Both the position numbers and the translations under genes were made by a program. This document shows, piece after piece, positions 24,129 to 52,845 of a stretch of DNA of 64,000 nucleotides (its first letter is position 1; every line of letters begins with the position of its first letter). Below the pieces are notes generated by a model. That model had not been told where the DNA came from. It was given only the letters and a program-made list of their open reading frames with translations, and did not search any database. The DNA is from Escherichia phage phAPEC8, in sequence record NC_020079.1. The stretch is one strand, 5' to 3'.

Positions 24129-24929
24129 TTATTTGTTTAAGTGGTCTTCGACCATTTTAATGAAACCTTCATTGCTGAAGGCTGTTGCAGCTTTTTCTCG
24201 GTAAACAAAAACTCCACGATCTTCATAGAGAAGTGTTTCTTCGTAATTAACTCCAGGGTTAACTACAACCATTTTTGTTCCGATGTTAAGAGCAGGAAAA
24301 AGCTCCCAGTTAAAATTGATAACTTGATTAGAGCAACCCACTACAATCACCATATCTTGAGCCGTCAAGCCGTCTAAGATGTGGTACATATCGTTATACA
24401 ATGGGGCAGTCTCCCCAAAGAACACTACATTGGGCTTCACATACTTGTAATCATCTACATCGATAGCAGCATAGCCAACATCTTTGATGATTCTATTGTC
24501 TACGATCACTTCAGGCAGGAAGCCGTGAACATGTAGAACATCTTCATGAACAACACCTGCTTGTTCCAGAAGATCATCTACGTTTGTCGTGATGTTGATA
24601 ACACGATCACAGCCGTACTCTTGGAACCACTCTGCGATCTGGTAATGCGCAGCGTTAGGAGACACACTATCCATCTCTACGCGACGTTTATTGTAGAAGT
24701 CATGAGTTTTACGGTAGAGGTTGTATCCCTCTGCATCTAATCCACCAACAGCGCCAGGAACACACTGTTCTTGCTGGTAGCCAGCACGGAAATTGAAAAT
24801 ATCGCACACTTCAGAAAGGTCGTATTCATCCCACAAAGCTTTCCCACTATCTGTATCAGTGCGGAAAGTACGTACACCGCTATCGGCGCTTAGACCCGCG
24901 CCGCTGATCACTATTAATCGTCTTGGCAT
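24129..24929 (-). CDS. SIR2-family (sirtuin-like) NAD-dependent protein, no zinc-ribbon module
   Basis: GAGLSADSGVRTFR, NAAHYQIAEW, NITTNVDDLLEQAG, HVHG, KPNVVFFGE, VVGCSNQV, VVVNP; no CxxC pairs. Confidence 0.75.
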   Translation of the reverse strand: MPRRLIVISGAGLSADSGVRTFRTDTDSGKALWDEYDLSEVCDIFNFRAGYQQEQCVPGAVGGLDAEGYNLYRKTHDFYNKRRVEMDSVSPNAAHYQIAEWFQEYGCDRVINITTNVDDLLEQAGVVHEDVLHVHGFLPEVIVDNRIIKDVGYAAIDVDDYKYVKPNVVFFGETAPLYNDMYHILDGLTAQDMVIVVGCSNQVINFNWELFPALNIGTKMVVVNPGVNYEETLLYEDRGVFVYREKAATAFSNEGFIKMVEDHLNK

Positions 24930-25463: not shown

Positions 25464-26117
25464 CTATATCAGACTTTCAAGGTATTTGTCAAGGGCTTCT
25501 TGATCACCTTGACAAACATAGCAACGGAAGTCTTGAGCCGAAGGTTGTTTATTTTCATCCCAGTCCCAATAAACATTACCCTTATAACGTGAACCAGGAA
25601 ACTCAAAAGAGGCTGTATGTGTAATGTATCCTGGGCCACCAGTGAAATCACAGAATGAGAATTGGGGGTATGCCGCCTTTACTGCCTCAATAAACCAAGC
25701 TTTACGATCTAAAGCTTCATTGATGCTATACGCATGTCTCTCCATTTCTTCCCACGTTTTCCAGACACTTCTCTCATCAGGAGAAAAGACAAGCCATTCT
25801 GGAAGGTACAGAGTGTCATAGTAATCATCATATTCGATCTCGGAGGCGCACGAAGCTGACTCCTCCAGTTTTGAGTAATCAAAAGCAGAATATACCCACC
25901 AACCATCTTCCAGTAACGCTTTGATAGGGACGAAGCCTTTATCAGCATATTGATCGAATTGTTTGACACGGTGGCTTGTGCAGTCTTCAAACTCACATTC
26001 TAAACGATATGCACCTTTTCGACGAGCCTCAAGACCGTGTGTACTGAAAATAACAACACTTCCTTCACCATCATTACGATCTACTTGATAAGCAACTACT
26101 GGTTTTGAATTTGACAT
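25464..26117 (-). CDS. hypothetical protein
   Basis: ORF tiling. Confidence 0.5.
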   Translation of the reverse strand: MSNSKPVVAYQVDRNDGEGSVVIFSTHGLEARRKGAYRLECEFEDCTSHRVKQFDQYADKGFVPIKALLEDGWWVYSAFDYSKLEESASCASEIEYDDYYDTLYLPEWLVFSPDERSVWKTWEEMERHAYSINEALDRKAWFIEAVKAAYPQFSFCDFTGGPGYITHTASFEFPGSRYKGNVYWDWDENKQPSAQDFRCYVCQGDQEALDKYLESLI

Positions 26118-26800
26118 TATTTCTCCTTATCTAGAAGATTGTTAGACAAAAACACTGCACGAGCAAAACCACGTGCGGTTAAGGATCTAAGTTGTTTTGT
26201 TTTTGCACTAGCTCCACCTAAGCTTTTCCAACCCCAGAAGCAGCCTATATGATCTACTGGTTTCTTCACTGGTTGAACAAAACCATTGCCGTGCCAAATA
26301 CAAGTTTTCTTTGTATACCCATCACGGGTAGGCATTTTAGGATGAAAGCTTCCTTCCTCTTCAAACAAATACCCACCATACTCATAAGGATCAAAGTAAA
26401 AATCGGGTTTACGCCATAAGGTTGAAAGTTTACCTACTGGGTTCTCAATCATCCAAGGAACATTATATTTGTTACCCAAAGCTTCCACTACACGAATATT
26501 AGCTAAAGCTTCATCTAGTTCCTCTGTGCTACGTTCGTGTTTGCTACCACTACCTGCTAACATAGTGCAAGGTGGAAATCCAAAAATAATATCGGGTTTA
26601 GGTATCCCATGATCTTCAGGGTTGAATGTAGAATCTATCCAGGCATTCACATAGGTTATGTTTGGGTGCTCCATCCTAACCTCGTATTTACCGTGATCCC
26701 CTTCATCAGCGTTTACACAAAAACACTTGTGACCTGCTTCGGCATAACGTAACACCATGATCCCAGATCCGTCAAACATAGACAAAACTGTTTTACTCAT
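26117..26800 (-). CDS. C5-cytosine methyltransferase-like protein
   Basis: FDGSG (motif I-like), GFPPCT (PC motif), ENP (ENV-like); start set at MSKT with SD GGAGGGG. Confidence 0.4.
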   Translation of the reverse strand: MSKTVLSMFDGSGIMVLRYAEAGHKCFCVNADEGDHGKYEVRMEHPNITYVNAWIDSTFNPEDHGIPKPDIIFGFPPCTMLAGSGSKHERSTEELDEALANIRVVEALGNKYNVPWMIENPVGKLSTLWRKPDFYFDPYEYGGYLFEEEGSFHPKMPTRDGYTKKTCIWHGNGFVQPVKKPVDHIGCFWGWKSLGGASAKTKQLRSLTARGFARAVFLSNNLLDKEK

Positions 26801-27206
26801 TACCCCTCCATTCAAGACAAGCCATAACTTTACGCCAATCACTTTCTGTAAGAAAAATCTCGTTTGCTTTCTTCCACAAATCTAAATCGTGAAGGGTTGG
26901 AATACGATATGTTAGTTCACAGAATCTATGCTCTTCTTCTGTAATATAACCAAAATGCAGAGCCACATCGTGAAACCAACACCAACCATGCATCTCTCGA
27001 ACAACATGGTCATGCTGAGACATTGTTTTATGCCGTAAACCTAACCAACAAGGAACAGATACTTTAGTAGTCTTTAATCTGTGATCAACAGTATTAGAGT
27101 ATTCAATAATAGCTGTCAGTTTCAATCGTGCTTTTTCTAAATCCTCATGGGTCACTTTGAAATAACTTTCTGAAAGATATCCACACATATTAATAACCTC
27201 CTTCAA
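26793..27206 (-). CDS. hypothetical protein
   Basis: ORF tiling. Confidence 0.5.
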   Translation of the reverse strand: MKEVINMCGYLSESYFKVTHEDLEKARLKLTAIIEYSNTVDHRLKTTKVSVPCWLGLRHKTMSQHDHVVREMHGWCWFHDVALHFGYITEEEHRFCELTYRIPTLHDLDLWKKANEIFLTESDWRKVMACLEWRGNE

Positions 27207-28131
27207 AAGGCTTAACTACATGTTGATTAGCTTTAAAACGTTCAACATAATCGTTTTCGCCCATGTTTTCATATAGCTTAGTAACAACATAAAAGTTTTC
27301 CCAAGCATATTCCCTAAACCAACCACTAGTGATGGATGTGCAGACTTTAGATAAAGCCATTATAAAACTTTGCTTAGGGGTTGGACCTCCGATCTCTTCA
27401 CCGAAAGGAATTTGTGAACGTTCCAAAGCCAAAACACACGCTTCTTCATAAACACCTAACAGGCGCACATGTTTTGGTTGAGCAAAAAACTTTTCTTTGC
27501 TGGTCATAACTTCACTTCCATCTTTCATATAAGATTTATATGCTGGAGCATCCATTACCGCGATTGCTTCATGGATAGAATCATGATCATAAACATACGG
27601 AACCTCATCACCTTTAAAGAAGTCTTTACTTTTTACGTTTAAGTTCGGATGAGAGTAAGTGTATGTTTCTTTCTCACGCAATTCATAAATACTCTTAAGA
27701 TTTTCTGGGATCTTTGCACCCAGTGACCGCATGAAATGAATATCTTTCATAGTTTTAAAGAAGTGAGGACTATCCTTTTTAAAACGATGACTCATTTTAA
27801 GAAGGTAGAGCACATCTAAAGGAGCAACAACATGTCCAGCGTAAGTTCGACGAACATCATCAGAACCTTCACAATAACTAATCAAAGCTTCTGTGCTATC
27901 TCCTTGAGAAGCAATATCATATTCCAAATGTGCACCAGCTATCATTTTGACATGGCCTTTGTTTCCTTTACGTTCTACAAGTTCAACAAACTCATCTTGA
28001 GAGAACATTTTTGATAATTCTTCCCACTCTTGTTCTGTACACAGGTAATCTAAATCTACACAAGGGCGATACAAGTCTTTTCCCATGTCCATAGCATGAA
28101 TTTGTAATGCACGGCTACCAATTAACACCAT
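27190..28131 (-). CDS. Pol-beta-superfamily nucleotidyltransferase-like protein
   Basis: N-terminal GS-x(n)-VDLD signature (IGSRALQ...CVDLDYL). Confidence 0.4.
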   Translation of the reverse strand: MVLIGSRALQIHAMDMGKDLYRPCVDLDYLCTEQEWEELSKMFSQDEFVELVERKGNKGHVKMIAGAHLEYDIASQGDSTEALISYCEGSDDVRRTYAGHVVAPLDVLYLLKMSHRFKKDSPHFFKTMKDIHFMRSLGAKIPENLKSIYELREKETYTYSHPNLNVKSKDFFKGDEVPYVYDHDSIHEAIAVMDAPAYKSYMKDGSEVMTSKEKFFAQPKHVRLLGVYEEACVLALERSQIPFGEEIGGPTPKQSFIMALSKVCTSITSGWFREYAWENFYVVTKLYENMGENDYVERFKANQHVVKPFEGGY

Positions 28132-34183: not shown

Positions 34184-34876
34184 TTAAATAGCGGTTCCTT
34201 CGAAATCCGCCACATTTACGAGATTAATATTTTCAGATTTAGAAGTCAAGTTGTTTTCTGCAACAGATTTTTCTTCAGTATCCGCCTCGTTACCTGCCAC
34301 GTTACGAGGTTCTTCTTCACCGTAGGGATTACCGAATTTCAAAAGATTGATCAATTCTTCTTTGGAGAAGTTTTCTAAATCATCGTCTGTTAATTCAATA
34401 ATCTCGTCTTGTTCTTCAATAAATGTTTCACCACCAGAAAAAGCATCTCGCTTTTTAGCTACTTCCATAGCCTGTTCTGGTGTTGCCCCTGCATCAAGAG
34501 CAGCTAAAGCAAAGTCTGACCCACTTCCTACCGCATAATATTCTTCATCAATCGGATATGCACGTGTTGGGTTGTTACCTTCGTGCAGGAAAATACGTCC
34601 GTCTGGATGAACAACAAGTGCAATAAACTCTTCATCTTCTTTATCTGGATCAGAGTGAATCATCAAACCAGGGACAGCATCACGTGCTGCTTCGCACTGT
34701 AGATTTTGTTCAAACCATTGAAAGAAAGAAAGCACGGAGGTCAGACGACCAGCACCACCTACAAGGTAATCTCCAATTTTTCGGACCTTTTTGAAATTAA
34801 TAGAATCTACACGTCCACCAAAAGTTACCTTACCGTCACTCAAAATCTTATTTTTGGTTGCAATAATTGTCGTCAC
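34184..34876 (-). CDS. HslV-like N-terminal-threonine peptidase with acidic C-terminal extension
   Basis: MTTIIATKN..DGKVTFGG..KKVRK..YAVGSGSDFALAA parallels E. coli HslV; SD GAGGAGG. Confidence 0.65.
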   Translation of the reverse strand: MTTIIATKNKILSDGKVTFGGRVDSINFKKVRKIGDYLVGGAGRLTSVLSFFQWFEQNLQCEAARDAVPGLMIHSDPDKEDEEFIALVVHPDGRIFLHEGNNPTRAYPIDEEYYAVGSGSDFALAALDAGATPEQAMEVAKKRDAFSGGETFIEEQDEIIELTDDDLENFSKEELINLLKFGNPYGEEEPRNVAGNEADTEEKSVAENNLTSKSENINLVNVADFEGTAI

Positions 34877-36870: not shown

Positions 36871-37131
36871 TTACTCCGCAATTTGAGCCATGAGATCACG
36901 CAGTTCGGTAAAACCGCCTACGTATGTTACCTCCCCGTTCACTTCAGACAGAATTTGTGGAAATGTGCGTGGAGGAACTCCGGTAAGATCAACAACTGTT
37001 TTAGTCATTGATTCTAAATCATAGTCTTGATCAAGACTTAAATATTCAAACTGTTTATTGCGCATGGTTAATAGTTGTTTTGACATTTCACAAAATTGAC
37101 AGTTAGGTTTACCAAAAATTACAAATTCCAT
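36871..37131 (-). CDS. glutaredoxin/NrdH-like redoxin
   Basis: 86 aa, N-terminal CQFC active-site motif. Confidence 0.6.
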   Translation of the reverse strand: MEFVIFGKPNCQFCEMSKQLLTMRNKQFEYLSLDQDYDLESMTKTVVDLTGVPPRTFPQILSEVNGEVTYVGGFTELRDLMAQIAE

Positions 37132-37973
37132 TACCTCTCCTTATTAAGTAATACTGCTAAAGACTGTTCAATACCTTTATTTAAATCTGATTTTGTAAGA
37201 TAGTGACTGGTTACTAGTTGTGACTTCATCGGACGTGCTGCTGGAGCATTATAGGTTGAAGCTGATACCGCCGATATCTTAACAGGTTCTGGCATCTGTG
37301 TCAAGATCTTTTCCGCAAACTCCGCCCAAGAAATAAGATGGCTTCCTGCAAAATGGTAAGTCTTAACAGACCTTGACCAACCTGTTCTTAATACTTCAAA
37401 AATAGCTTCTGCTAAATCTGGAGCATATGTTGGACAAGAGAACTGATCAGCAACAATAATAAAATCACGTTGTCCATCATTATAGCGAGACAACATGGTT
37501 TTTAGAAAGTTATTTCCAAATTCGCTATATACCGAGGCTGTTCGAATAATATATGCATTTGGGTTAACTCCTCGCACCATTTTTTCACCAAGTTCTTTCG
37601 TATACCCATAATTGTTTATTGGGTTAGGTGTAGTATCTTCAAAAATAGGATGAGAATAATTAAAAATATAGTCTGTAGAAATATGCACAAAATCAATTTT
37701 AAGTTTGCTGCACACTGCCGCAATATTTGCAGGTCCATACGCATTAACAGCCAAAGCAGTAGCAAAATCATGTTCTGCTTTATCTACAGCCGTATAAGCG
37801 GCGCAATTAATAACACCATCTACATAATCTTCAATAATAGCGTTTCGCACAGCTTCAAAATTTGTAATATCTACACGTTCTTTAGGATAAATTAAAGATA
37901 CATTTGAAGGAGCCACTTTACGTAAAGCTTGTCCCAGTTGTCCATTACCGCCCAATACCAGATATGTTAGCAT
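37131..37973 (-). CDS. rmlD: dTDP-4-dehydrorhamnose reductase
   Basis: N-terminal GGNGQLG Rossmann motif; size and operon context. Confidence 0.8.
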   Translation of the reverse strand: MLTYLVLGGNGQLGQALRKVAPSNVSLIYPKERVDITNFEAVRNAIIEDYVDGVINCAAYTAVDKAEHDFATALAVNAYGPANIAAVCSKLKIDFVHISTDYIFNYSHPIFEDTTPNPINNYGYTKELGEKMVRGVNPNAYIIRTASVYSEFGNNFLKTMLSRYNDGQRDFIIVADQFSCPTYAPDLAEAIFEVLRTGWSRSVKTYHFAGSHLISWAEFAEKILTQMPEPVKISAVSASTYNAPAARPMKSQLVTSHYLTKSDLNKGIEQSLAVLLNKER

Positions 37974-38533
37974 ACACCCTCGCTACGTAACTGTTGAAAA
38001 GATTTAGCCATTGCATCTTTTGTTGATAGAATAGGTTTAAAACCTTCGTCAAAAATCATATCGAAGCCCCAATCGATCCCTATATCAGGATCATCCCAAC
38101 GTAAACTTTGTTCACTAGAAGGGTCGTATGGAGTTGTGCATTTGTATTCAAAGATAGCATCCATACTCAAAACTATAAAACCATGAGCCAAACCAGGCGG
38201 AAGCCAAAACTGCGTATGGTGTCGTGCACGAAGAACAACACCGTCCCAAGCACCGTAAGTTGGACTATCTTTACGTAAATCTACAGCGAAATCCAATACT
38301 TCCCCACTTACACAACGAACTAGCTTACCTTGCGGGTTATTTGTTTGAAAGTGCATTCCTCGCAAAACACCGAAGTTTGATTTAGACATGTTATCTTGAA
38401 CGAAAGTTTGTCTACCAATAATATCTTCGTATTTTTGTTCATTATATGTTTCTAGAAAGAAACCACGATCATCTTTATAAACGTCTGGTTTGATAATTAC
38501 CGCACCTTCAATTTTTGTTTTTTCTACTTTCAT
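37967..38533 (-). CDS. rmlC: dTDP-4-dehydrorhamnose 3,5-epimerase
   Basis: [35 protein letters not shown]; start at internal ATG. Confidence 0.9.
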
Positions 38534-39408
38534 TTTCTCTCCGCTAATTTGAGTAGGTATTGCCCGTACTCTGTTTTCTTCAGTGAGTTTCCATGATACA
38601 CCAAAGTCTCTAAAGAAATCCACCCTTTTTTGAAAGCAATTTCTTCCAAGCACGCAATCTTCAATCCTTGACAGTTCTCAATAGTCTGCACGAATTGACC
38701 AGCTTCCATCAGACTGGCGTGTGTTCCTGTGTCAAGCCAAGTAAATCCTCGTCCGAGAACTTCCACTTGTAACTTCCTGTCTTCTAGGTAGCTGCGATTG
38801 ATATCAGTGATCTCCAGTTCTCCACGCGCGGAAGGGGTTACTTCTAATGCACGTTGAATAACAGAGTTATCATAGAAATACAAACCTGTGACAGCATAAT
38901 CTGATTTAGGATTTTCAGGTTTCTCTTCAATAGAAATAGCTTGACGATTACTCCCAAATTCAACCACACCGAATCGTTCAGGATCTTTCACCAAATACCC
39001 GAAAATACAAGCTCCGCCCCAAACATCTACCATCTCACTGGCGTTAATCAGTAGTTTACCAAAGCTTTGTCCGAAGAATAGGTTGTCACCTAAAATAAGA
39101 GCAACAGAGTCTTCTCCGATAAAATCTTTACCTATGATGAAAGCTTCCGCAAGACCTCGTGGCTCGGATTGGATTGCGTAAGTGAGTTTTATCCCAAACA
39201 TAGACCCATCTCCGAGAAGATACTCAAAGTCTTCCTGATCACCTGGTGTGGTGATGATTAAAATATCCTTAATGTCAGCCAACATCAATACCGATAAAGG
39301 GTAGTAGATCATGGGTTTGTCATACACAGGGAGCAATTGCTTGCTCACACTGCGTGTTACCGGATGAAGGCGGGTTCCACTTCCTCCCGCCAAAATAATA
39401 CCTTTCAT
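38530..39408 (-). CDS. rmlA: glucose-1-phosphate thymidylyltransferase
   Basis: [18 protein letters not shown]. Confidence 0.9.
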
Positions 39409-39416
39409 AACCCTCC

Positions 39417-40409
39417 TTAAATTTTCTCACTCCACCATTGAGGGTTGTTTAAGTACCATTCAATCGTTGAGTAGAGATCTTGTTCAAATGTAGAGTTTGC
39501 ACTCCAGCCCAGTTCAGACTCTATCTTAGAAGGATTGATTTCATAACGCAAGTCATGTCCTTTACGATCTTCAACAAAAGTTATCAAGTTGGAAGAAGGG
39601 TAGGTTACTGCTTCTGGATGTACAGTATCCATATAGTCACAAACCATATAGATGATCTCCATATTGGTTTTGGGATTACGTGTTCCAACATTATACGTTT
39701 GACCTGGTTCTCCACCTGTTGCCACTTGAAGAATAGCTCGCGCATGATCCTCAACAAAAAGCCAGTCTCGCACCTGGTCGCCTTTACCATACACCGGAAT
39801 CTCTTTATTCGTCAAGATACTTGTGATGATTTTTGGGATCAGCTTTTCTGGATGTTGATAAGGCCCAAAGTTATTGGAGCAGTTGGTTATCACAACAGGC
39901 AAATCGTAGGTGCGGTGCCAAGCTTTCACAAGATGGTCAGATGCTGCCTTAGACGCACTGTACGGGCTTGAAGGGGCATAAGCTGTCTCTTCGGTAAAGG
40001 GAACGCCAGAGTCTGCCATATCGCCGTACACTTCGTCTGTGGAGACGTGTACGAACATCTTCAGTTTATTTTTTGGGAGGAGCCTTGCAGCTTCCAATAA
40101 ATTGTATGTACCGATAATATTGGAGTCGATGAAAACTCGTGGATTCTTGATAGAATTATCCACATGACTTTCTGCCGCTAAGTGAATGATGAAGTCAGGA
40201 TTGCACTCTACTACTAAACTTTTGACCTGGGTTTCGTTTGCCAAATCTGTCATGCTTAGTTTAACGTGAGTGATATCGCCTACATTCTCAATATCTGCTG
40301 CATAGCCCATCTTATCAACGACAAAAACTTCGTTATTAGGATCTTGACAAAGAGAGCGCACCACGGCACTCCCAATAAAACCAAGACCACCTGTTACCAG
40401 ATAGCGCAT
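39417..40409 (-). CDS. rmlB: dTDP-glucose 4,6-dehydratase
   Basis: [16 protein letters not shown]; extended SDR fold. Confidence 0.9.
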
Positions 40410-40418
40410 CAGTTCTCC

Positions 40419-45711: not shown

Positions 45712-46710
45712 TCACCATTTAGTATGATTTGTTAAAAGTTGACGATGTTGAATCCAGCCTTTGAAATTGCCAGACCAAAACTTACCATTACGATCTACAT
45801 GGGTAATACCTGGTTCCCAAGAGTTAAAATCCCAAGGAGCATTGATAAACAAATCTTCAAAACAGTTCTCTCCATATTGTTCGCATGTTTCTTGAATTGG
45901 AGTGGCTTGATGTTCAAACGGAGAAGCATGAACCTTGCGCCCAGTCAGCAAACGACCATAGATATCTAAAGCTTTATCTTTAGTTGCATTTAAACGACGA
46001 TAGCTAACCTGTGCACAACATGAAGCTGAAATAGCTTTGGCTTCTTCCAAAGTAAGCACAACAACTTCTCCAGATTCATCTTGAACGTAGTATCCACCAA
46101 AAACAAAATGATCGTCACCTTCTGTGCCAATATTATCGTAGAAATGGTCTACATAAGGTGTGTGCCATTGCCCTGGTTTCAGCACTTCTGGTGTAGATCC
46201 TTCATACTCTTTGTGCATCTCTTTAGCCAAAGCTTCGATAGTAGGATCGGCTTCTTTGTCATCACGTAGCCACCAGAAATTTTCATATTCTGTTGCTGTC
46301 AGAACTGTTTTAATTCGTTGGAAAGGTTCCAGAAGACGGTTTGCAACTTGTTTGTGGTACCCTGCCAAAGAGAATTCTTCTGCAAAACGTGCTGCACTAA
46401 GCGCGGCAAGATCCCACCACTCTTGAGCAGTATAACCTGCATCAATAAGAGCGTCATGATCAACACCTTTATCCTGCATACCAGGTTGGTTAGCCCCAAA
46501 ACGATAAGGACGAGCAGGTTGATTTCGCACCATTTCAATCAGTGTTTTAACAGGTATAGCACGGCTAGAAGCAGCATTACGACTGAACAGGCGGTGAGTC
46601 ATCAATTCTGAATGAATAATACGTGGATATTCTAGTTCAAAAGTTACAATCTCTTTTCCGTCTTCAGTGATGGAATGCGCAATAATACTAGCCGAAATCT
46701 GTTTTGTCAT
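45712..46710 (-). CDS. thyX: flavin-dependent thymidylate synthase-like (ThyX family)
   Basis: ThyX-type signature THRLFSRNAASSRA; 332 aa, longer than typical. Confidence 0.65.
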   Translation of the reverse strand: MTKQISASIIAHSITEDGKEIVTFELEYPRIIHSELMTHRLFSRNAASSRAIPVKTLIEMVRNQPARPYRFGANQPGMQDKGVDHDALIDAGYTAQEWWDLAALSAARFAEEFSLAGYHKQVANRLLEPFQRIKTVLTATEYENFWWLRDDKEADPTIEALAKEMHKEYEGSTPEVLKPGQWHTPYVDHFYDNIGTEGDDHFVFGGYYVQDESGEVVVLTLEEAKAISASCCAQVSYRRLNATKDKALDIYGRLLTGRKVHASPFEHQATPIQETCEQYGENCFEDLFINAPWDFNSWEPGITHVDRNGKFWSGNFKGWIQHRQLLTNHTKW

Positions 46711-46719
46711 TTTTTCTCC

Positions 46720-47328
46720 TTAGTTTTTAAAATTGTTCAAAGTGTTAAAAACATCCAAACATGTTAGCCACTGATCTTCTAAACCTGTGATCACAACATT
46801 TGGTTTTTTCTTTAGTTCTTCTAGATGGTTATCTTTATAAGGCGTATTAAAATATATTTTAACCACTTCATCTGGAAAATATAGTAGGTTATCAGACCTG
46901 TCATCTATTGCTATATCACAAGGCAATAAGTATTTTTCTTTCGTAGCAAAAAAGCCGTTACCAGATCCTTTGCTAAAATCAATCGTATCTAACGTTCTTA
47001 AAACATGCTTATGTTTAGAACTTAAGTGACCACCTTTTGTCACACTTGCGATCAAAAGATTGCTACCTTTCCTTGAAACATACTTTAAGAAATCTGGCAT
47101 ACCTGGAACAAAACCCATTGTATCATAGAGATGAGGATTATCCAGAAATCCGTAAGGATCTATATTGAACTCCTCCCTGAAACCAGGAAAGTAGTTGGTA
47201 AGATCATAGTCTGCATTTTTTGTGAATGTGTCTATCTTAACACCAAGTCCACTAATCTTATTCAACCATTCTAACCAAGCAACATCTAATGGAGCCACAA
47301 CTAAATCCCAATCACATACTATCTGCAT
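46720..47328 (-). CDS. HAD-superfamily 5'(3')-deoxyribonucleotidase-like
   Basis: N-terminal DWDLV (DxD motif I). Confidence 0.45.
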   Translation of the reverse strand: MQIVCDWDLVVAPLDVAWLEWLNKISGLGVKIDTFTKNADYDLTNYFPGFREEFNIDPYGFLDNPHLYDTMGFVPGMPDFLKYVSRKGSNLLIASVTKGGHLSSKHKHVLRTLDTIDFSKGSGNGFFATKEKYLLPCDIAIDDRSDNLLYFPDEVVKIYFNTPYKDNHLEELKKKPNVVITGLEDQWLTCLDVFNTLNNFKN

Positions 47329-48107: not shown

Positions 48108-48509
48108 TTAGTATTGCTCGCCACTAATACGTTCCTTAAGTTGTTTAATAGCTTCGATTGCATCTACATAAGAAGAGTTATACATGTGTTTCAGTGCTAC
48201 TCGTACTAAAGGATCTTTTGTGAAGAAATCAATAAGAAGCATAGCTTGATCATGTTTAGCTGCATTTGTCATAGATGGATAATTTTCACGAACCATATAC
48301 GTGTTATTTTGCATAAGGGTTCTTTCTAGTTCAATACAATGAATAGCTTTATCTAGGTTAATCTGACGTTCACCTTTAATACGTGTTGCGTATTTTGCCA
48401 ATTTGCAAAAACAAGGTGTGCCACCAACCAAATAAGCTAGTTCAATAGGTTGCATTGCCATTTTTGTGTAGTGATCACCGTCAACCTGATTATCAAAAGC
48501 ATTAGACAT
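48108..48509 (-). CDS. hypothetical protein
   Basis: ORF tiling. Confidence 0.5.
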   Translation of the reverse strand: MSNAFDNQVDGDHYTKMAMQPIELAYLVGGTPCFCKLAKYATRIKGERQINLDKAIHCIELERTLMQNNTYMVRENYPSMTNAAKHDQAMLLIDFFTKDPLVRVALKHMYNSSYVDAIEAIKQLKERISGEQY

Positions 48510-48765
48510 AATTTTCCTCCTGAATTCCTACTGCACCTTCTTCTGGGTAGTCTGCATAATAAGCTACCCTACCTTGATAGATAACATCACCATCATTATT
48601 GTAGATTGCTGTATCTTCTTGAATTGTTATTTCAACATCAAGTAAATCTGGGTCTTTCTCGATGGTATAGTTCAAACCTAACATTTCAAACAGTTCGAAA
48701 ATTTCGTTACCTGTTAATGTAATGCTCATATTTCCTCCTTTTATTGTGGTTAGCAGAGTATACAC
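48502..48765 (-). CDS. hypothetical protein
   Basis: ORF tiling. Confidence 0.5.
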   Translation of the reverse strand: MYTLLTTIKGGNMSITLTGNEIFELFEMLGLNYTIEKDPDLLDVEITIQEDTAIYNNDGDVIYQGRVAYYADYPEEGAVGIQEENYV

Positions 48766-48815
48766 TAATATAAAATTTTTGTCAATAAAAAAGGGAGCAA
48801 TAAGCTCCCTGATTA

Positions 48816-49775
48816 TTAGATTCCAATAATAGTTGCTGCTCGTTTATCCTTGGATCTGGTGTTTGCTCTACTACGTGACAAACCGCCGCAAGATTCACAA
48901 CGAATGATATCGAAAGAACTTACCGCAGTGTGGTATTGTTTACCAGTAACAACGTGAACGTGATCACTGCCACAACGAGAACAACGGACCTTCTCATCTG
49001 GGTAATAAGCGGATAAGTTAGGATGCTGTGGAATCCACGGAAGGATTTTCATATACAAATCACGGAGTGAAACAACATCACCATCATTGTAAATCTGCAT
49101 ACGTTCAAAAGCATCACGATCACCTTCACAACATGCTTTCCATAAAGGGAATCCCTCGTTATCCAGTTTTTCACTTTCTGTTTCGAAATATGCTCCCATT
49201 TCTTTAAGGGAGTTGGAAGGAAGTGCAAATTGTTTCTTAGCTGCCTTCAATGTATCAACAACTACATAATTAGAAGGAGGAGCCATATCGTGATATGCAA
49301 ATCGTTGGTTAATGTATGCACGGTCAAACTTATACCCGTTGTGTGCCACAACTACATCTGCCTCATTCAGAAGGTTCCAAAGATCTTGGCAAAGCTCCCA
49401 ATCATCTGTATGATCAATATCAAAAAGAGGATAAGAAGACAAGTTCTTACCTTCCACTTCACCAGTATACAGGTCAGCAGAAGAGTAAGATAACAAATAA
49501 CCCCTACGAATTACTTGATCTGGAGAAATGAAGGCTTTGAATCGACGGAAAGTATATGCAATCTCTGGTGCAGTTTCAACATCAATAATTTTAATAACGG
49601 GTTGTTTCTTTTTAACTAGCTCTTGTTTACTTGCTCCAAATCGTGCAAGGAAATCGTTCACTGTGCTTTTTCTTGTTGGACTACCTAAAACAATTGCTGC
49701 AATATTACGAGAAGACATACCCTCTGCACTCATACTAAGGATATCTGCTTTCTGCTCTTCTGTTAATCTGCTCAC
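48816..49775 (-). CDS. DEDD-type 3'-5' exonuclease-like protein with N-terminal HTH and C-terminal zinc ribbon
   Basis: IIDVET (Exo I), VVVAHNGYKFD (Exo II), C-terminal CSRCG..CESCGG. Confidence 0.5.
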   Translation of the reverse strand: MSRLTEEQKADILSMSAEGMSSRNIAAIVLGSPTRKSTVNDFLARFGASKQELVKKKQPVIKIIDVETAPEIAYTFRRFKAFISPDQVIRRGYLLSYSSADLYTGEVEGKNLSSYPLFDIDHTDDWELCQDLWNLLNEADVVVAHNGYKFDRAYINQRFAYHDMAPPSNYVVVDTLKAAKKQFALPSNSLKEMGAYFETESEKLDNEGFPLWKACCEGDRDAFERMQIYNDGDVVSLRDLYMKILPWIPQHPNLSAYYPDEKVRCSRCGSDHVHVVTGKQYHTAVSSFDIIRCESCGGLSRSRANTRSKDKRAATIIGI

Positions 49776-50461
49776 TCTGCCTCCTGTTGTGAGATGTATG
49801 ACTGAAGCATACTCTCAAATGTTGTATCGTCATTATCCCAGCGTTTCATGTATACCAACTGGAAAATTGTTTCTATCCATTCATCTGTTGTCATATGGAC
49901 TTCTTCTCCATCCCAAGAAGTAAAATTAACACCATCTGGGAACCATGAGTAGTAAGTATCTTTAACTGTTTGGAAAAGTTCTGCTTGAGTTTTACAAGCT
50001 GAAAGAAGATTAAAACAAGTAATATCTCCGAACTTAATATCAAAATCTTGATAAGGTCGGATACTATCTGTTTTATCTCCCATTAGCATCTGATATGCTA
50101 ACCAGTAACTGCCCCAACCTTTAACTTCTTTCTTTTTACCTTTATCTACGATCCATATATCGCCAATAGACTCGTCAATAAGAATTATATCTGGATTTTT
50201 AAATACTCCATCCTCTTTGTAGAAATTAAAAAGGATACTAGGAGTATGTAAACTATCTTTATCTATAGATACTACGATATAAGAAAATTTACCCGTCCTT
50301 TTATAATCTTTATAACCTTGGAAACCATACTTCTCTAACTCATCATCAGCTTCTATTACAGTAACAACATCACCATTGTGGAACTCCACAAGATAATCTT
50401 TGGTTTCTGAAAGCTGAAGTGGTTTGATATCTAATCGTTCAGATTTATATTCTACAGGCAT
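49772..50461 (-). CDS. hypothetical protein; reading frame stays open upstream to 50902 with GVGKT P-loop-like motif
   Basis: ATG ORF; 147 in-frame sense codons upstream without ATG/GTG/TTG. Confidence 0.45.
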   Translation of the reverse strand: MPVEYKSERLDIKPLQLSETKDYLVEFHNGDVVTVIEADDELEKYGFQGYKDYKRTGKFSYIVVSIDKDSLHTPSILFNFYKEDGVFKNPDIILIDESIGDIWIVDKGKKKEVKGWGSYWLAYQMLMGDKTDSIRPYQDFDIKFGDITCFNLLSACKTQAELFQTVKDTYYSWFPDGVNFTSWDGEEVHMTTDEWIETIFQLVYMKRWDNDDTTFESMLQSYISQQEAE

Positions 50462-50902
50462 TTTGAAGGCGTGTCTGAAAGTTTTTCCTACGCCAATAAC
50501 TCCGCAATATTTTTCTAAACGTAGATGTTTTAGAATACCTAAGACTTTTGTTTTAGCTGCTTGGAAGGTGTGTCCGATATCTTCTGGCGGGTATTGCTTA
50601 TCAATGATTTCGAACTCTTCCTTTGTGAAGGGACGTTTGTTTTTGGAGGCTCTTTCTGCATTTGTATCTCCTAGCCAACCTCCAATTTTAGTCTTGCTTT
50701 TACCCCAAAACTCTGTCTTATTTTTAAATTCCTTTTGAGCACCTGAAGGGATGTGCTTCGCAATGATTGTTCTTTTCTCTAATGCAGACGCTGCTTGGAA
50801 AGCGATCTGATCATAATCAATTGCAGCTATTGTTTCTTCATTGACATATAAATGAAGATCTTCAGGTTTAATTAAAATATAACCGCTAATATTTCCCCCT
50901 AG

Positions 50903-51112
50903 TTATTCATCGTCATCCTCTGTTGAGAATGTTTTAGTATACGGACATTGACGACTTTTCGGGATTGCTATAACTTCATCTTGGTTAGCGTTAGAATAGT
51001 AGCAATATTTTGTATTGCCATTAACTTCAGAATCAGACAAGATTAAAGTAATTTGACCTGCTGCTACTGTGAAACTAAAAGCTAAAAGAACGACTGTCAG
51101 AATCTTTTTCAT
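50903..51112 (-). CDS. small secreted protein
   Basis: signal-peptide-like MKKILTVVLLAFSFTVAAG; two Cys. Confidence 0.5.
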   Translation of the reverse strand: MKKILTVVLLAFSFTVAAGQITLILSDSEVNGNTKYCYYSNANQDEVIAIPKSRQCPYTKTFSTEDDDE

Positions 51113-51184
51113 AACGCCTCCTAAAAAGCCTACCTCATTAAGTAGGTAGGCATAATATCATAACTAATCCCGCAAGTCAAGAAC

Positions 51185-52063
51185 TTATTTAAGGATTGTT
51201 GCTTTGGTTAAATCTTCCATCAGACCTCGAATCTCATTGAAGCACAGAAGGACTGAAGCTTCAATACTGCCTTCTTCGTCTGCAAAATATTTCGGAAAAC
51301 GTAGTTTAGAAAGTTTAAACTCTTTATCCACTACGAAATCTACAACACCGTCATATTCAAGACCGATTGCAACAACATCTTTACCATCTTCTTTTAGTTC
51401 GACAGCTTTAGACTCGTATAGGGATTCTTTACTCCAAACAACAACGCCCTCGCTATCCTCCATTTTGATATAATTTCCGAGAGTAATACGATCTGCTTCG
51501 TGATTCTCCAGCAATTCACCAAAACCTTTTACAATAGCTTCTTCATGCACACTAAAACCTACCGAAGGGAAAGTCCCCAGAACGGAACGGAGGAAAGAAG
51601 TAATCTCTTCTGCAACCTTTTTACTTCCATTAAGAACATAAAGAAGATTCGTAGTTTTATCCAAGACAACATAGTTAAAGAAATCTTCAGGTTCTGTTTC
51701 AGGCAATAGTGCAAATTCAATATCTTCCTTCATTGCTTTTACTACTTCTTTATCGACATAAAACTCTTTACCTTCGCTCTCCATGTCCTGACGCATTTCT
51801 TCTAGACGTTCATTCAGAATACGTTTAACTTTCTTTTTATCTACCTTCTTCACAGATTGACCTACATTAAGCAGTTCAAGATCTGAAAACTCTTTTACAA
51901 ATTTAGAGTCATCTTCGAAACGAACAAGACCGATAGTGTGTGACTGGGAGCCTTCTGCTGTTACAAATTCCAGAGGAATATCTGTAATGTTGTTAAGGGA
52001 TGCTACAGAAGCATTGTCACCAACAACCATAGGCAGAGCGGATTTAAAAGATTTTACAAACAT
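51185..52063 (-). CDS. RdgC-like recombination-associated protein
   Basis: FALLPETEPEDFFNYVVLDKTTNLLYV...LRSVLGTFPSV parallels E. coli RdgC. Confidence 0.6.
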   Translation of the reverse strand: MFVKSFKSALPMVVGDNASVASLNNITDIPLEFVTAEGSQSHTIGLVRFEDDSKFVKEFSDLELLNVGQSVKKVDKKKVKRILNERLEEMRQDMESEGKEFYVDKEVVKAMKEDIEFALLPETEPEDFFNYVVLDKTTNLLYVLNGSKKVAEEITSFLRSVLGTFPSVGFSVHEEAIVKGFGELLENHEADRITLGNYIKMEDSEGVVVWSKESLYESKAVELKEDGKDVVAIGLEYDGVVDFVVDKEFKLSKLRFPKYFADEEGSIEASVLLCFNEIRGLMEDLTKATILK

Positions 52064-52119: not shown

Positions 52120-52845
52120 TTACTTGTTAATAATACCTGCAATATTAGGTTTGACAAAGGTCGATGGTTTCATGATCTTACCTTTATCATCAAAGAACAC
52201 ATACACTTTCTGTTTTTCATTATAAACAGCATGAACACCAGTGTATGCCCCTTCTGGACGATTGGCATTTCGTTCTTCAATTGCAGCGCATTCTTGTGCA
52301 ATGGCTGAATCGATATCCGAAGTTTTCCAAGTTTTCAGCAACTGTTGTTTAGTTGGATACTTGGAATCATTACTTTTCAATACCTCTTTAATAACTTTCT
52401 TTTCTGGATATTTTGAACGGATTAGAGTGTCACGAGACATACGCATAATACCAGCAGCCATTAGTGCCATTTGAACTGGCTCTGTAAATGTTTGTTCCAA
52501 AGCATCAAAATCAGTATACACAGTTGGAGTAAAAACATCGCCTACAGCATAGTCCAAGAAATTCATCGTATGTTCTTCACCAAAGAACATGTAAGTCAGA
52601 TAACTGGATACTACAAAAATATCCGCTGCTGCATCCAAGAGTTCTACATGATCGTTTACTTTCGCGGCTGTTTCATACTCTTTAAGCTCTTCACGAACGA
52701 ACCCGATTTGGGACATAAATAACTCTTGAGTGAATTCAGGTTGTTCACCACCTCGTGCTTTGGCATTCCAATCAATTACGTGCTTTGCTGCATTTTTGAA
52801 AAATTCAGTATCGAATTTAATATCTTTAAAAAAATTCTCGATCAT
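52120..52845 (-). CDS. MazG-like nucleotide pyrophosphohydrolase-like protein
   Basis: EELKEYETAA...ELLDAAADIFVV (ExxE...DxxD pattern). Confidence 0.4.
   Translation of the reverse strand: MIENFFKDIKFDTEFFKNAAKHVIDWNAKARGGEQPEFTQELFMSQIGFVREELKEYETAAKVNDHVELLDAAADIFVVSSYLTYMFFGEEHTMNFLDYAVGDVFTPTVYTDFDALEQTFTEPVQMALMAAGIMRMSRDTLIRSKYPEKKVIKEVLKSNDSKYPTKQQLLKTWKTSDIDSAIAQECAAIEERNANRPEGAYTGVHAVYNEKQKVYVFFDDKGKIMKPSTFVKPNIAGIINK

Follow-up and report, generated by a model that had tools for sequence, protein, structure and literature searches.

The 64,000-nucleotide stretch of Escherichia phage phAPEC8 analysed here (NC_020079.1; hereafter the window) carries four contiguous minus-strand open reading frames (ORFs; 37131-40409), rmlB, rmlA, rmlC and rmlD, which constitute an intact predicted RmlB-RmlA-RmlC-RmlD pathway for deoxythymidine diphosphate (dTDP)-L-rhamnose, located at one fixed locus throughout the Stephanstirmvirinae. 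On balance, the module probably supplies dTDP-L-rhamnose to the phage's own glycosyltransferases (GTs), with an acceptor that would not be bulk DNA and would more likely be a phage-specified macromolecule. The window shares 99.8% identity with Escherichia phage tuntematon and 97-98% with the phAPEC8/ESCO5/ESCO13 group, which belongs to the genus Phapecoctavirus (subfamily Stephanstirmvirinae) of virulent myoviruses with genomes of ~150 kb. It maps to tuntematon from ~12070 down to 1 and then from 150 kb down to 96.6 kb.

The four enzymes were assigned by curated NCBIfam equivalog models with their cut-offs, and all four enzyme families of the pathway score above these thresholds (Table 1), with E-values of 2e-70 to 1e-139; the matches are therefore not due to chance. 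The identities, coordinates and strand given in the original prediction are confirmed, and the gene order and the position inside a nucleotide-metabolism block were also correctly recognised. Alignments and motifs in the translations show that the catalytic residues of RmlA, RmlB, RmlC and RmlD are all intact. RmlC, aligned to Salmonella RmlC 1dzr (E 4e-56), conserves RGMHFQ (His), GKLVRC (Lys) and FEYKCT (Tyr), and RmlD, aligned to the RmlD structure 3sc6 (E 4e-44), conserves GGNGQLG (GxxGxxG), STDYIF (STDY) and YGYTK (YxxxK). The YSASK motif of RmlB and the GGSGTRL motif of RmlA are visible in the translations. The true start of rmlC is the ATG at 38533; the mechanical ORF extends to a GTG at 38653.

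The two halves of the operon differ in their distribution. rmlC-rmlD is present at at least 95% identity in 69 phage records and is kept in all 69 of these near-identical records, whereas rmlB-rmlA reaches that level in ~40 and is missing from ~40% of Phapecoctavirus records. The pair is lacking in, among others, ESCO37, nepoznato, anhysbys, Mt1B1_P17 and ZCKP1. Of these, ESCO37 was isolated as a viable phage, and a laboratory recombinant re-acquired both genes (PMC10269720). In the rmlBA-less records the match ends at one common base (query 1412, corresponding to window position 38542), and the difference is a clean 1876-bp indel in which the GGAGA at 40418-40414 is joined to the GGAGA at 38542-38538. 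ESCO37-type phages read ...TGGTAAGGAGAGAAAATGAAAG at the joined GGAGA repeats, and the junction sequence of the rmlBA-less phages is TGGTAAGGAGAGAAAATG. Klebsiella relatives, among them phage phi1_175008, likewise contain rmlC-rmlD only, at the same spot. To our knowledge, every Enterobacterales host makes dTDP-4-keto-6-deoxyglucose via RffH/RffG for enterobacterial common antigen (ECA), and RmlC and RmlD are known only from hosts with rhamnose O-antigens. As the hosts supply the RmlB product, the two steps retained by the phage without exception are precisely those that may be missing from its hosts. Thus, the consistent retention of rmlC-rmlD indicates that selection appears to act on the end product of the pathway and not on a sink for dTTP.

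The pathway would guarantee a supply of dTDP-L-rhamnose in whichever enterobacterial host a broad-host-range phage infects. RmlC and RmlD would be its indispensable part, while RmlA and RmlB, which are often absent, would merely boost the supply of dTDP-4-keto-6-deoxyglucose or free it from the host. The nucleotide sugar would then serve as donor for the three to four soluble GTs of the phage, gp113-gp116.

The original prediction had recognised no GT. This holds for the window, in which tblastn detects no GT gene (best E 0.42), but not for the genome: gp113-gp116 of tuntematon (48463-51607) are four consecutive RefSeq-annotated glycosyltransferases located ~45 kb outside the window, and their apparent absence results from the window covering only 64 kb. 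The search of the remaining genome for GTs and base-modifying enzymes, which had been recommended, hence yields four GT genes and no hydroxymethylase, TET/JBP protein or hydroxymethyluracil (hmU) kinase. gp113-gp116 immediately precede the genes for primase/helicase, a Dam-type methyltransferase and DNA polymerase I. They match PHROGs families with E-values of 1e-79 to 1e-149, whereas Pfam GT matches are sub-threshold only, and none of them contains a predicted transmembrane segment (maximal Kyte-Doolittle 19-residue mean at most 1.65). gp114 is a GT-A enzyme with a DXD motif, in which FDDD and YGxED are invariant; its AlphaFold model has a pLDDT of 89, and its Foldseek matches comprise STIV A197, TarP, WrtF and the GT domain of LH3. 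gp115 and gp116 have the two-Rossmann GT-B fold. When gp113, gp114 and gp115 were compared with PDB chains by sequence, no match was obtained.

Directly upstream of the GT genes, a Ter-type stress-response cluster is encoded (tuntematon NC_052660 37066-47140, locus L004; L015 1-3749). It comprises a HAD hydrolase, a ComF-like phosphoribosyltransferase (PF15610, E 4e-42), a phosphatase, a TerC membrane protein, an SprT-like metallopeptidase, TelA (E 3e-33), a vWA-TerF-like protein (E 2e-37) and TerD (E 3e-28), followed by an SleB-type hydrolase 0.7 kb upstream of gp113. Anantharaman and colleagues reportedly proposed in 2012 that Ter-type gene sets make a nucleoside-like metabolite.

The rml and GT modules are conserved together. 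In a phage collection, the gp115 family (144 records) is almost entirely confined to Stephanstirmvirinae, which are also the carriers of rml genes; the related Vequintavirus phages lack it, and the rmlBA-less phage ESCO37 has it. Both Justusliebigvirus PaulScherrer and the deep-branching Klebsiella phage 05F01, whose Rml enzymes share 40-66% protein identity with those of the window, contain the two modules at the same loci, with rmlB-A-C-D between nrdB and grx, from which we infer that both modules were ancestral to the subfamily.

Homologues of gp115 in bacterial genomes (42-51% identity) belong to temperate prophages. One of these, from Enterobacter huaxiensis, has the order endolysin, gp113-like gene (44% identity), nucleoside diphosphate (NDP)-hexose 4,6-dehydratase, gp114-like gene (hhalign probability 100%, E 7e-58), gp115-like gene, HNH, TerS, TerL and capsid. 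The closest family of the dehydratase is RmlB (TIGR01181, 180 bits), and it shares 30% identity with the phage RmlB. In Serratia, Pseudomonas silvicola and metagenomic lambdoid prophages, the GT genes are likewise located past the lysis genes and directly before the HNH, terminase, portal and capsid genes. The prophage cassette thus always lies between lysis genes and HNH/terminase, includes an RmlB-like 4,6-dehydratase in one case, and has no nucleotide-modification genes nearby. This association of GTs with a dehydratase, which is independent of the rml operon, constitutes the best available evidence that the rml product may be the GT donor. A gp115 homologue (42% identity) is also found in a non-phage context in Trinickia symbiotica (PYUC01000018, L011), near an intimin/invasin-like giant adhesin gene and unannotated ORFs; this GT family may have a role in protein glycosylation in bacteria.

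As to the acceptor, E. coli, Klebsiella, Enterobacter, Serratia and Pseudomonas differ in their surface glycans but have phages with the same GT pair. The occurrence across hosts with unrelated surface glycans therefore favours a phage-specified acceptor, and the location of the prophage GTs in a late operon favours an acceptor that is made late in infection. The acceptor would thus be host-independent, with virion structural proteins as the first candidate and a cell-envelope glycan or lipid carrier as the second. The more specific proposal, that a portable three-GT cassette with 6-deoxyhexose enzymes, common to lytic Stephanstirmvirinae and unrelated lambdoid/HK97-like prophages, rhamnosylates virion proteins, is a tentative one that we regard as possible but doubtful. 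In a less likely variant, the cassette would attach a deoxyhexose to DNA at rare sites, through a reaction independent of hydroxymethylated bases.

Several observations weigh against the proposed supply of dTDP-L-rhamnose to phage GTs acting on a virion or other phage-specified acceptor. The link between rml and the GTs is drawn from sequence, and the two modules are ~70 kb apart in the E. coli phages. Neither donor nor acceptor of the GTs can be named from sequence or fold searches, and GT4 enzymes mostly use UDP- or GDP-sugars as donors. RmlD exceeds the TIGR01214 cut-off by only 13 bits, and because of this small margin the product may be a related sugar, e.g. dTDP-6-deoxy-L-talose. In Stephanstirmvirinae, both modules are embedded among replication and nucleotide-metabolism genes and not among structural genes, which fits DNA as acceptor at least equally well. 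We know of no glycosylated virion described for phages of Gram-negative bacteria, and the literature search revealed no glycan-staining report for phi92 or phAPEC8. Furthermore, the lysis-terminase interval of lambdoid prophages is also a classic moron site for lysogenic-conversion genes, and both modules adjoin peptidoglycan hydrolases, which keeps an envelope- or lysis-related role alive.

Two other destinations for the sugar have to be considered. The hypothesis found in print is DNA modification (PMC7552041; PMC10844046): gp113-gp116 would move dTDP-rhamnose onto phage DNA bases, either globally, similar to glucosyl-hydroxymethylcytosine (glucosyl-hmC) in T4, or at sparse motif sites, and thereby allow evasion of nucleases. 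The placement of rml among NrdAB, glutaredoxin (Grx) and ThyX, and of the GTs directly upstream of primase/helicase, the Dam-type methyltransferase and DNA polymerase, is in line with this, as is the presence of an NT5C-like deoxynucleotidase and a MazG-like pyrophosphohydrolase in the window. gp114 also weakly matches the TET-associated glycosyltransferase family PF20691 (sub-threshold, E 1e-3, 19.5 bits, cut-off 27.5) and the PHROG of the T-even beta-glucosyl-HMC alpha-glucosyltransferase (E 8e-6), both matches covering the DXD region only. On the other hand, the whole-genome RefSeq annotation and Pfam scans of 36 candidate ORFs contain no ThyA-type hydroxymethylase, TET/JBP, C5-methyltransferase Pfam domain or hmU kinase. 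The T4-type set of dCMP/dUMP hydroxymethylase, dCTPase/dUTPase and deoxynucleoside monophosphate (dNMP) kinase was not found there either, the only related proteins being the divergent ThyX, the NT5C-like and the MazG-like enzymes. In the fold search, more than 20 generic GT4 enzymes are placed ahead of those of T4, and the prophage GT trio occurs without nucleotide-modification genes nearby. Both modules are present in the Justusliebigvirus phages Bas60-62, described as 'exceptionally susceptible' to restriction-modification (RM) of types I-III (PMC8594841). BREX restricts the Durham phages phiPATM and phiPau 10^7-fold, and neither is a target of BrxU, which cleaves modified cytosine (PMC8565348). 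By name and PMC12210895, these two correspond to vB_Eco_PATM and Paula, which both have rml genes. In these literature data, which concern a sister genus with both modules, the restriction resistance and the sensitivity to type IV enzymes (GmrSD/BrxU) expected of T4-type hypermodified DNA are not seen. The RM and BREX sensitivity of phages with both modules therefore disfavours bulk DNA modification; sparse motif-specific modification may be compatible with this sensitivity and with the missing hydroxymethylase. Overall, we consider transfer to DNA quite unlikely, and of the three roles raised in the original prediction (DNA hypermodification, virion glycosylation and host-envelope remodelling) it is the least supported, considering the missing hydroxymethyl route and the RM/BREX-sensitive relatives. 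Remodelling of the host envelope is unlikely as well, albeit slightly less so. Here, dTDP-rhamnose would alter surface glycans via host rhamnosyltransferases or via phage GTs acting on lipid-linked or lipopolysaccharide (LPS) acceptors, resulting in superinfection exclusion, less sticking of progeny to debris, or undecaprenyl-phosphate being tied up around lysis. Rhamnose is a typical O-antigen sugar, and the prophage trio sits past the lysis cassette, at a known moron/lysogenic-conversion site. A T4-type lysozyme is encoded 0.4 kb downstream of rmlD and the SleB-type hydrolase 0.7 kb upstream of gp113, and the phages use numerous fibres and spikes for glycan recognition (PMC10844046; PMC11990801). 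Yet the four GTs have no predicted transmembrane segment and no GtrA/GtrB/GtrC-type proteins are annotated in the genome, so the gene content does not correspond to GtrABC-type lysogenic conversion. Acceptor-specific envelope GTs would also not be expected to transfer as freely between hosts with differing glycans as the GT pair does, the phages plaque on K-12, which is devoid of O-antigen, and a lytic cycle offers hardly any time to replace existing surface glycan, as the BASEL authors state for virulent phages generally.

Two further explanations are both very improbable. In nucleotide-pool management, dTDP-rhamnose would feedback-inhibit host RmlA/RffH and thus spare dTTP, or the ECA precursor would be drained. 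dTDP-rhamnose is a known allosteric inhibitor of RmlA, and the operon is embedded in a block for deoxynucleoside triphosphate (dNTP) supply, apparently in a transcription unit common with nrdB and grx. This proposal explains neither the co-conserved GT cluster nor the independent linkage of the GT trio to an RmlB-like dehydratase in a prophage; moreover, the phage rmlA would itself use dTTP, and the Rml proteins evolve faster (53-71% identity) than lysozyme and NrdB (77-84%). Alternatively, the module could be a largely dispensable passenger, inherited as an accessory with little present function in E. coli hosts and heading to loss. K-12 hosts already make dTDP-rhamnose. ESCO37 and the laboratory recombinant are viable without rmlB-A (PMC10269720), and this pair is absent from ~40% of Phapecoctavirus records. 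Against a mere passenger stand the intact rmlC-D in 69 of 69 records, the catalytic motifs kept by all four genes, and the maintenance of the module in no fewer than three genera, whose proteins have diverged to 40-66% identity.

Two candidate explanations were rejected. Masking of an ECA receptor was dropped, as the follow-up of the BASEL study assigns the shared receptor to the NGR glycan and not to ECA (PMC11990801). A route from 5-methylcytosine via TET to glycosylated 5-hydroxymethylcytosine was discarded because the 'Dcm' ORF and its neighbours contain no DNA_methylase, TET_JBP or 2OG domain and because gp114 fails the TET-associated glycosyltransferase model; the only domain matches in this neighbourhood are SIR2, DUF7275/7277 and HslV-like. 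The ORF itself (window 26117-26842), labelled 'Dcm' or 'DNA methyltransferase' in public records, has no Pfam match at E<=0.01 and no PF00145 match, its assignment being based on VOG/PHROG clustering only.

The origin of the rml genes can be traced in part. The closest RmlA proteins are those of other Stephanstirmvirinae (72-86% identity), followed by RfbA of Vibrio/Pseudoalteromonas (68-71%). No bacterial RmlA exceeds 71% identity to the phage RmlA, and the phage RmlA proteins cluster together. The phage proteins score far below the cut-off of models specific for enterobacterial RfbA/RffG. Recent capture of the whole pathway from an enterobacterial host was consequently rejected, as the nearest bacterial RmlA is from Vibrio/Pseudoalteromonas and the enterobacterial-specific models failed. 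The GC content at third codon positions (GC3) is 0.41 for rmlB, 0.40 for rmlA, 0.26 for rmlC and 0.22 for rmlD, against a background of 0.30 +/- 0.05 in 30 other minus-strand ORFs of the window. In PaulScherrer and 05F01, it is 0.22-0.27 for rmlB/rmlA and 0.20-0.27 over the four genes. This suggests that the Phapecoctavirus rmlBA pair has a history different from that of rmlCD, and hints at replacement or re-acquisition of just rmlB-rmlA. Given the anomalous GC3 of rmlB/rmlA, the 1876-bp indel may be either a deletion or an insertion. The Rml proteins diverge faster than the neighbouring core genes, with 53-71% identity in comparison to 77-84% for lysozyme and NrdB.

Judged by their rml and/or gp115 GT genes, several records with other host labels group with the E. 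coli Stephanstirmvirinae: Campylobacter phages B15 (MG065650), C3 (MG065656), A145 (MG065645) and A110a (MG065689), Acinetobacter phage vB_AbaM_ABPW7 (OP562383) and Pseudomonas phage PsgM04F (OR584014). Identity to Phapecoctavirus is 98-99% for B15 and ABPW7; C3, A145 and A110a are at the level of Justusliebigvirus (rml DNA 65.7%, gp115 71.5%), and PsgM04F at the level of phiWec (gp115 78.7%). Host mislabelling or contamination is the likely cause. In PaulScherrer (MZ501100; L018 8982-9972), the DNA polymerase is annotated as an intein-containing precursor; the annotation of the Phapecoctavirus polymerase mentions no intein.

The junctions within the operon are tight. The rmlA stop and the rmlC start overlap as ATGA, rmlC and rmlD overlap by 7 nt, and the rmlD stop shares one base with the ATG of the glutaredoxin gene (TAATG). 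rmlB and rmlA are separated by an 8-nt spacer with GGAGG. The overlapping stops and starts described originally are therefore real at three of the four junctions (rmlA/rmlC, rmlC/rmlD and rmlD/grx), the rmlB/rmlA junction having none. Downstream of rmlD follow glutaredoxin, a small ORF, a T4-type lysozyme and PhoH; upstream of rmlB are four small ORFs, NrdB, NrdA, two small ORFs, the divergent ThyX and an NT5C-like deoxynucleotidase. The flanks thus agree with the earlier description of a glutaredoxin/lysozyme/PhoH cluster on one side and NrdAB/ThyX on the other. In the region of 35-47 kb, 47 promoter-like sites (33.9 +/- 5.1 expected) and 9 terminator-like sites (7.2 +/- 3 expected) were detected. 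The sole plausible minus-strand terminator of this region, at 42687-42672, is located directly past nrdA, and a minus-strand scan between nrdB and phoH revealed no convincing terminator, from which we infer that the sugar genes are co-transcribed with the nucleotide-metabolism genes.

Table 1. Positions of the rml genes, the indel boundaries and associated features (window coordinates, except for the prophage cassettes, which are given by locus)
Feature	Position	Strand	Evidence
rmlB, dTDP-glucose 4,6-dehydratase (330 aa)	39417-40409	-	TIGR01181 431 bits, cut-off 365
rmlA, glucose-1-phosphate thymidylyltransferase (292 aa)	38530-39408	-	TIGR01207 464.5 bits, cut-off 361
rmlC, dTDP-4-dehydrorhamnose 3,5-epimerase (188 aa)	37967-38533	-	TIGR01221 225 bits, cut-off 156
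rmlD, dTDP-4-dehydrorhamnose reductase (280 aa)	37131-37973	-	TIGR01214 237 bits, cut-off 224
GGAGA, Shine-Dalgarno sequence of rmlB, upstream indel boundary	40414-40418	-	sequences of rmlBA-less phages
GGAGA, Shine-Dalgarno sequence of rmlC inside the rmlA 3' end, downstream indel boundary	38538-38542	-	sequences of rmlBA-less phages
glutaredoxin gene (genomic context, apparently co-transcribed; outside the sugar pathway)	36871-37131	-	ORF, junction, annotation
gp113/gp114/gp115-like cassettes in prophages	L008 7797-10921; L010 9357-10960; L012 714-2317; L016 6358-7960; L017 5589-7670		

The surrounding blocks of the window contain further genes of note. ThyX (45712-46710) is long (332 aa), and its Pfam Thy1 match is partial and weak (33 bits). 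It is followed by the NT5C-like deoxypyrimidine 5'-nucleotidase (46720-47328) and, further along, by the MazG-like NTP pyrophosphohydrolase (52120-52845). A gene for an HslV/proteasome-like peptidase (34184-34876), with a weak Pfam Proteasome match and annotated as HslV in relatives, adjoins PhoH and is conserved across the subfamily. The early-gene block includes a Sir2-family ORF (24129-24929; PF02146, E 6e-20) and a DUF7277-DUF7275 protein of 313 aa (27190-28131; E 1e-75), both of which may have counter-defence or NAD-related functions.

The identification of the rml genes is in itself routine annotation, and the module and the DNA-glycosylation hypothesis are already published. Dozens of GenBank records annotate the four genes as rml. 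The pathway was described by Olsen et al. 2020, who called its location in the DNA-metabolism region 'peculiar' and suggested that hydroxymethylated nucleotides might be glycosylated with rhamnose in the manner of T4 (PMC7552041). Maffei et al. 2021 referred to 'a putative dTDP glycosylation machinery' (PMC8594841) and a 2024 paper to 'rhamnose modification in Stephanstirmvirinae' (PMC10844046). The observation on which the original prediction was built, including the odd location and the same hypothesis, was hence not new. A literature search retrieved neither an experimental test of rml module function nor, for phi92 or phAPEC8, a publication dealing with rhamnose or virion glycosylation; a 2026 Durham paper on DNA modification does not mention phages of the phAPEC8 group. 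The present analysis adds the polymorphism of rmlBA, the connection with the GT trio and the homologues in prophages. Phapecoctavirus and Justusliebigvirus have host ranges among the broadest of coliphages and are used in therapeutic and biocontrol cocktails (PMC10844046), and a six-to-eight-gene sugar system is conserved in these phages. A sugar on the virion, if present, could affect immunogenicity, stability and pharmacokinetics, and rhamnosylated virion proteins would represent the first virion-glycosylation system described in phages of Gram-negative hosts and might influence persistence in the gut, immune recognition or resistance to host proteases. A sugar on DNA would represent a new modification chemistry. 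Natural isolates with and without rmlBA, together with the recombinant REC, provide ready genetic material.

In comparison to known systems, the phage module contains the same four, translationally coupled enzymes as the bacterial rmlBACD/rfbBDAC operons, and its B-A-C-D order is that of some proteobacterial operons. Unlike these, it lies in the NrdAB/ThyX/Grx block of a virulent myovirus, without an adjacent rhamnosyltransferase, flippase or polymerase; the composition of its rmlC-D is phage-like, and the closest bacterial RmlA (68-71%) is not from Enterobacteriaceae. Nothing in the window differs from the module published for phAPEC8, phi92 and the Stephanstirmvirinae (PMC7552041, PMC8594841).

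T-even DNA glucosylation has in common with the phAPEC8 type a phage-encoded sugar-transfer capacity near replication genes and a GT-B fold, as in T4 AGT/BGT. The phAPEC8 type differs in the absence of the hydroxymethylase, dCTPase and dNMP kinase set, in the RM/BREX sensitivity of its relatives, and in its donor, predicted to be a dTDP-6-deoxyhexose and not UDP-glucose. Phages with arabinosyl-hmC carry their own sugar-nucleotide genes. The arabinosyl-hmC modification of phages is reported in PMC13390438.

Soluble phage GT-A/GT-B enzymes without DNA-modification partners, and the position of the prophage trio among late genes, resemble virion glycosylation in mycobacteriophages. Freeman and colleagues are said to have shown in 2023 that GT operons of mycobacteriophages O-glycosylate capsid and tail-tube proteins. 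Remote homologues of gp115 (~25% identity) are annotated as glycosyltransferases in Streptomyces and Arthrobacter phages. In contrast to the mycobacteriophages, phAPEC8-type phages infect Gram-negative hosts and would make the nucleotide sugar themselves. Mimivirus and chlorella viruses possess their own UDP-rhamnose synthesis (UGD/UGER) and glycosylate virion components. Virus-encoded synthesis of a rhamnose nucleotide sugar is thus common to these giant viruses and to the phages, whereas the giant viruses use a UDP route that is not homologous as an operon and infect eukaryotic hosts.

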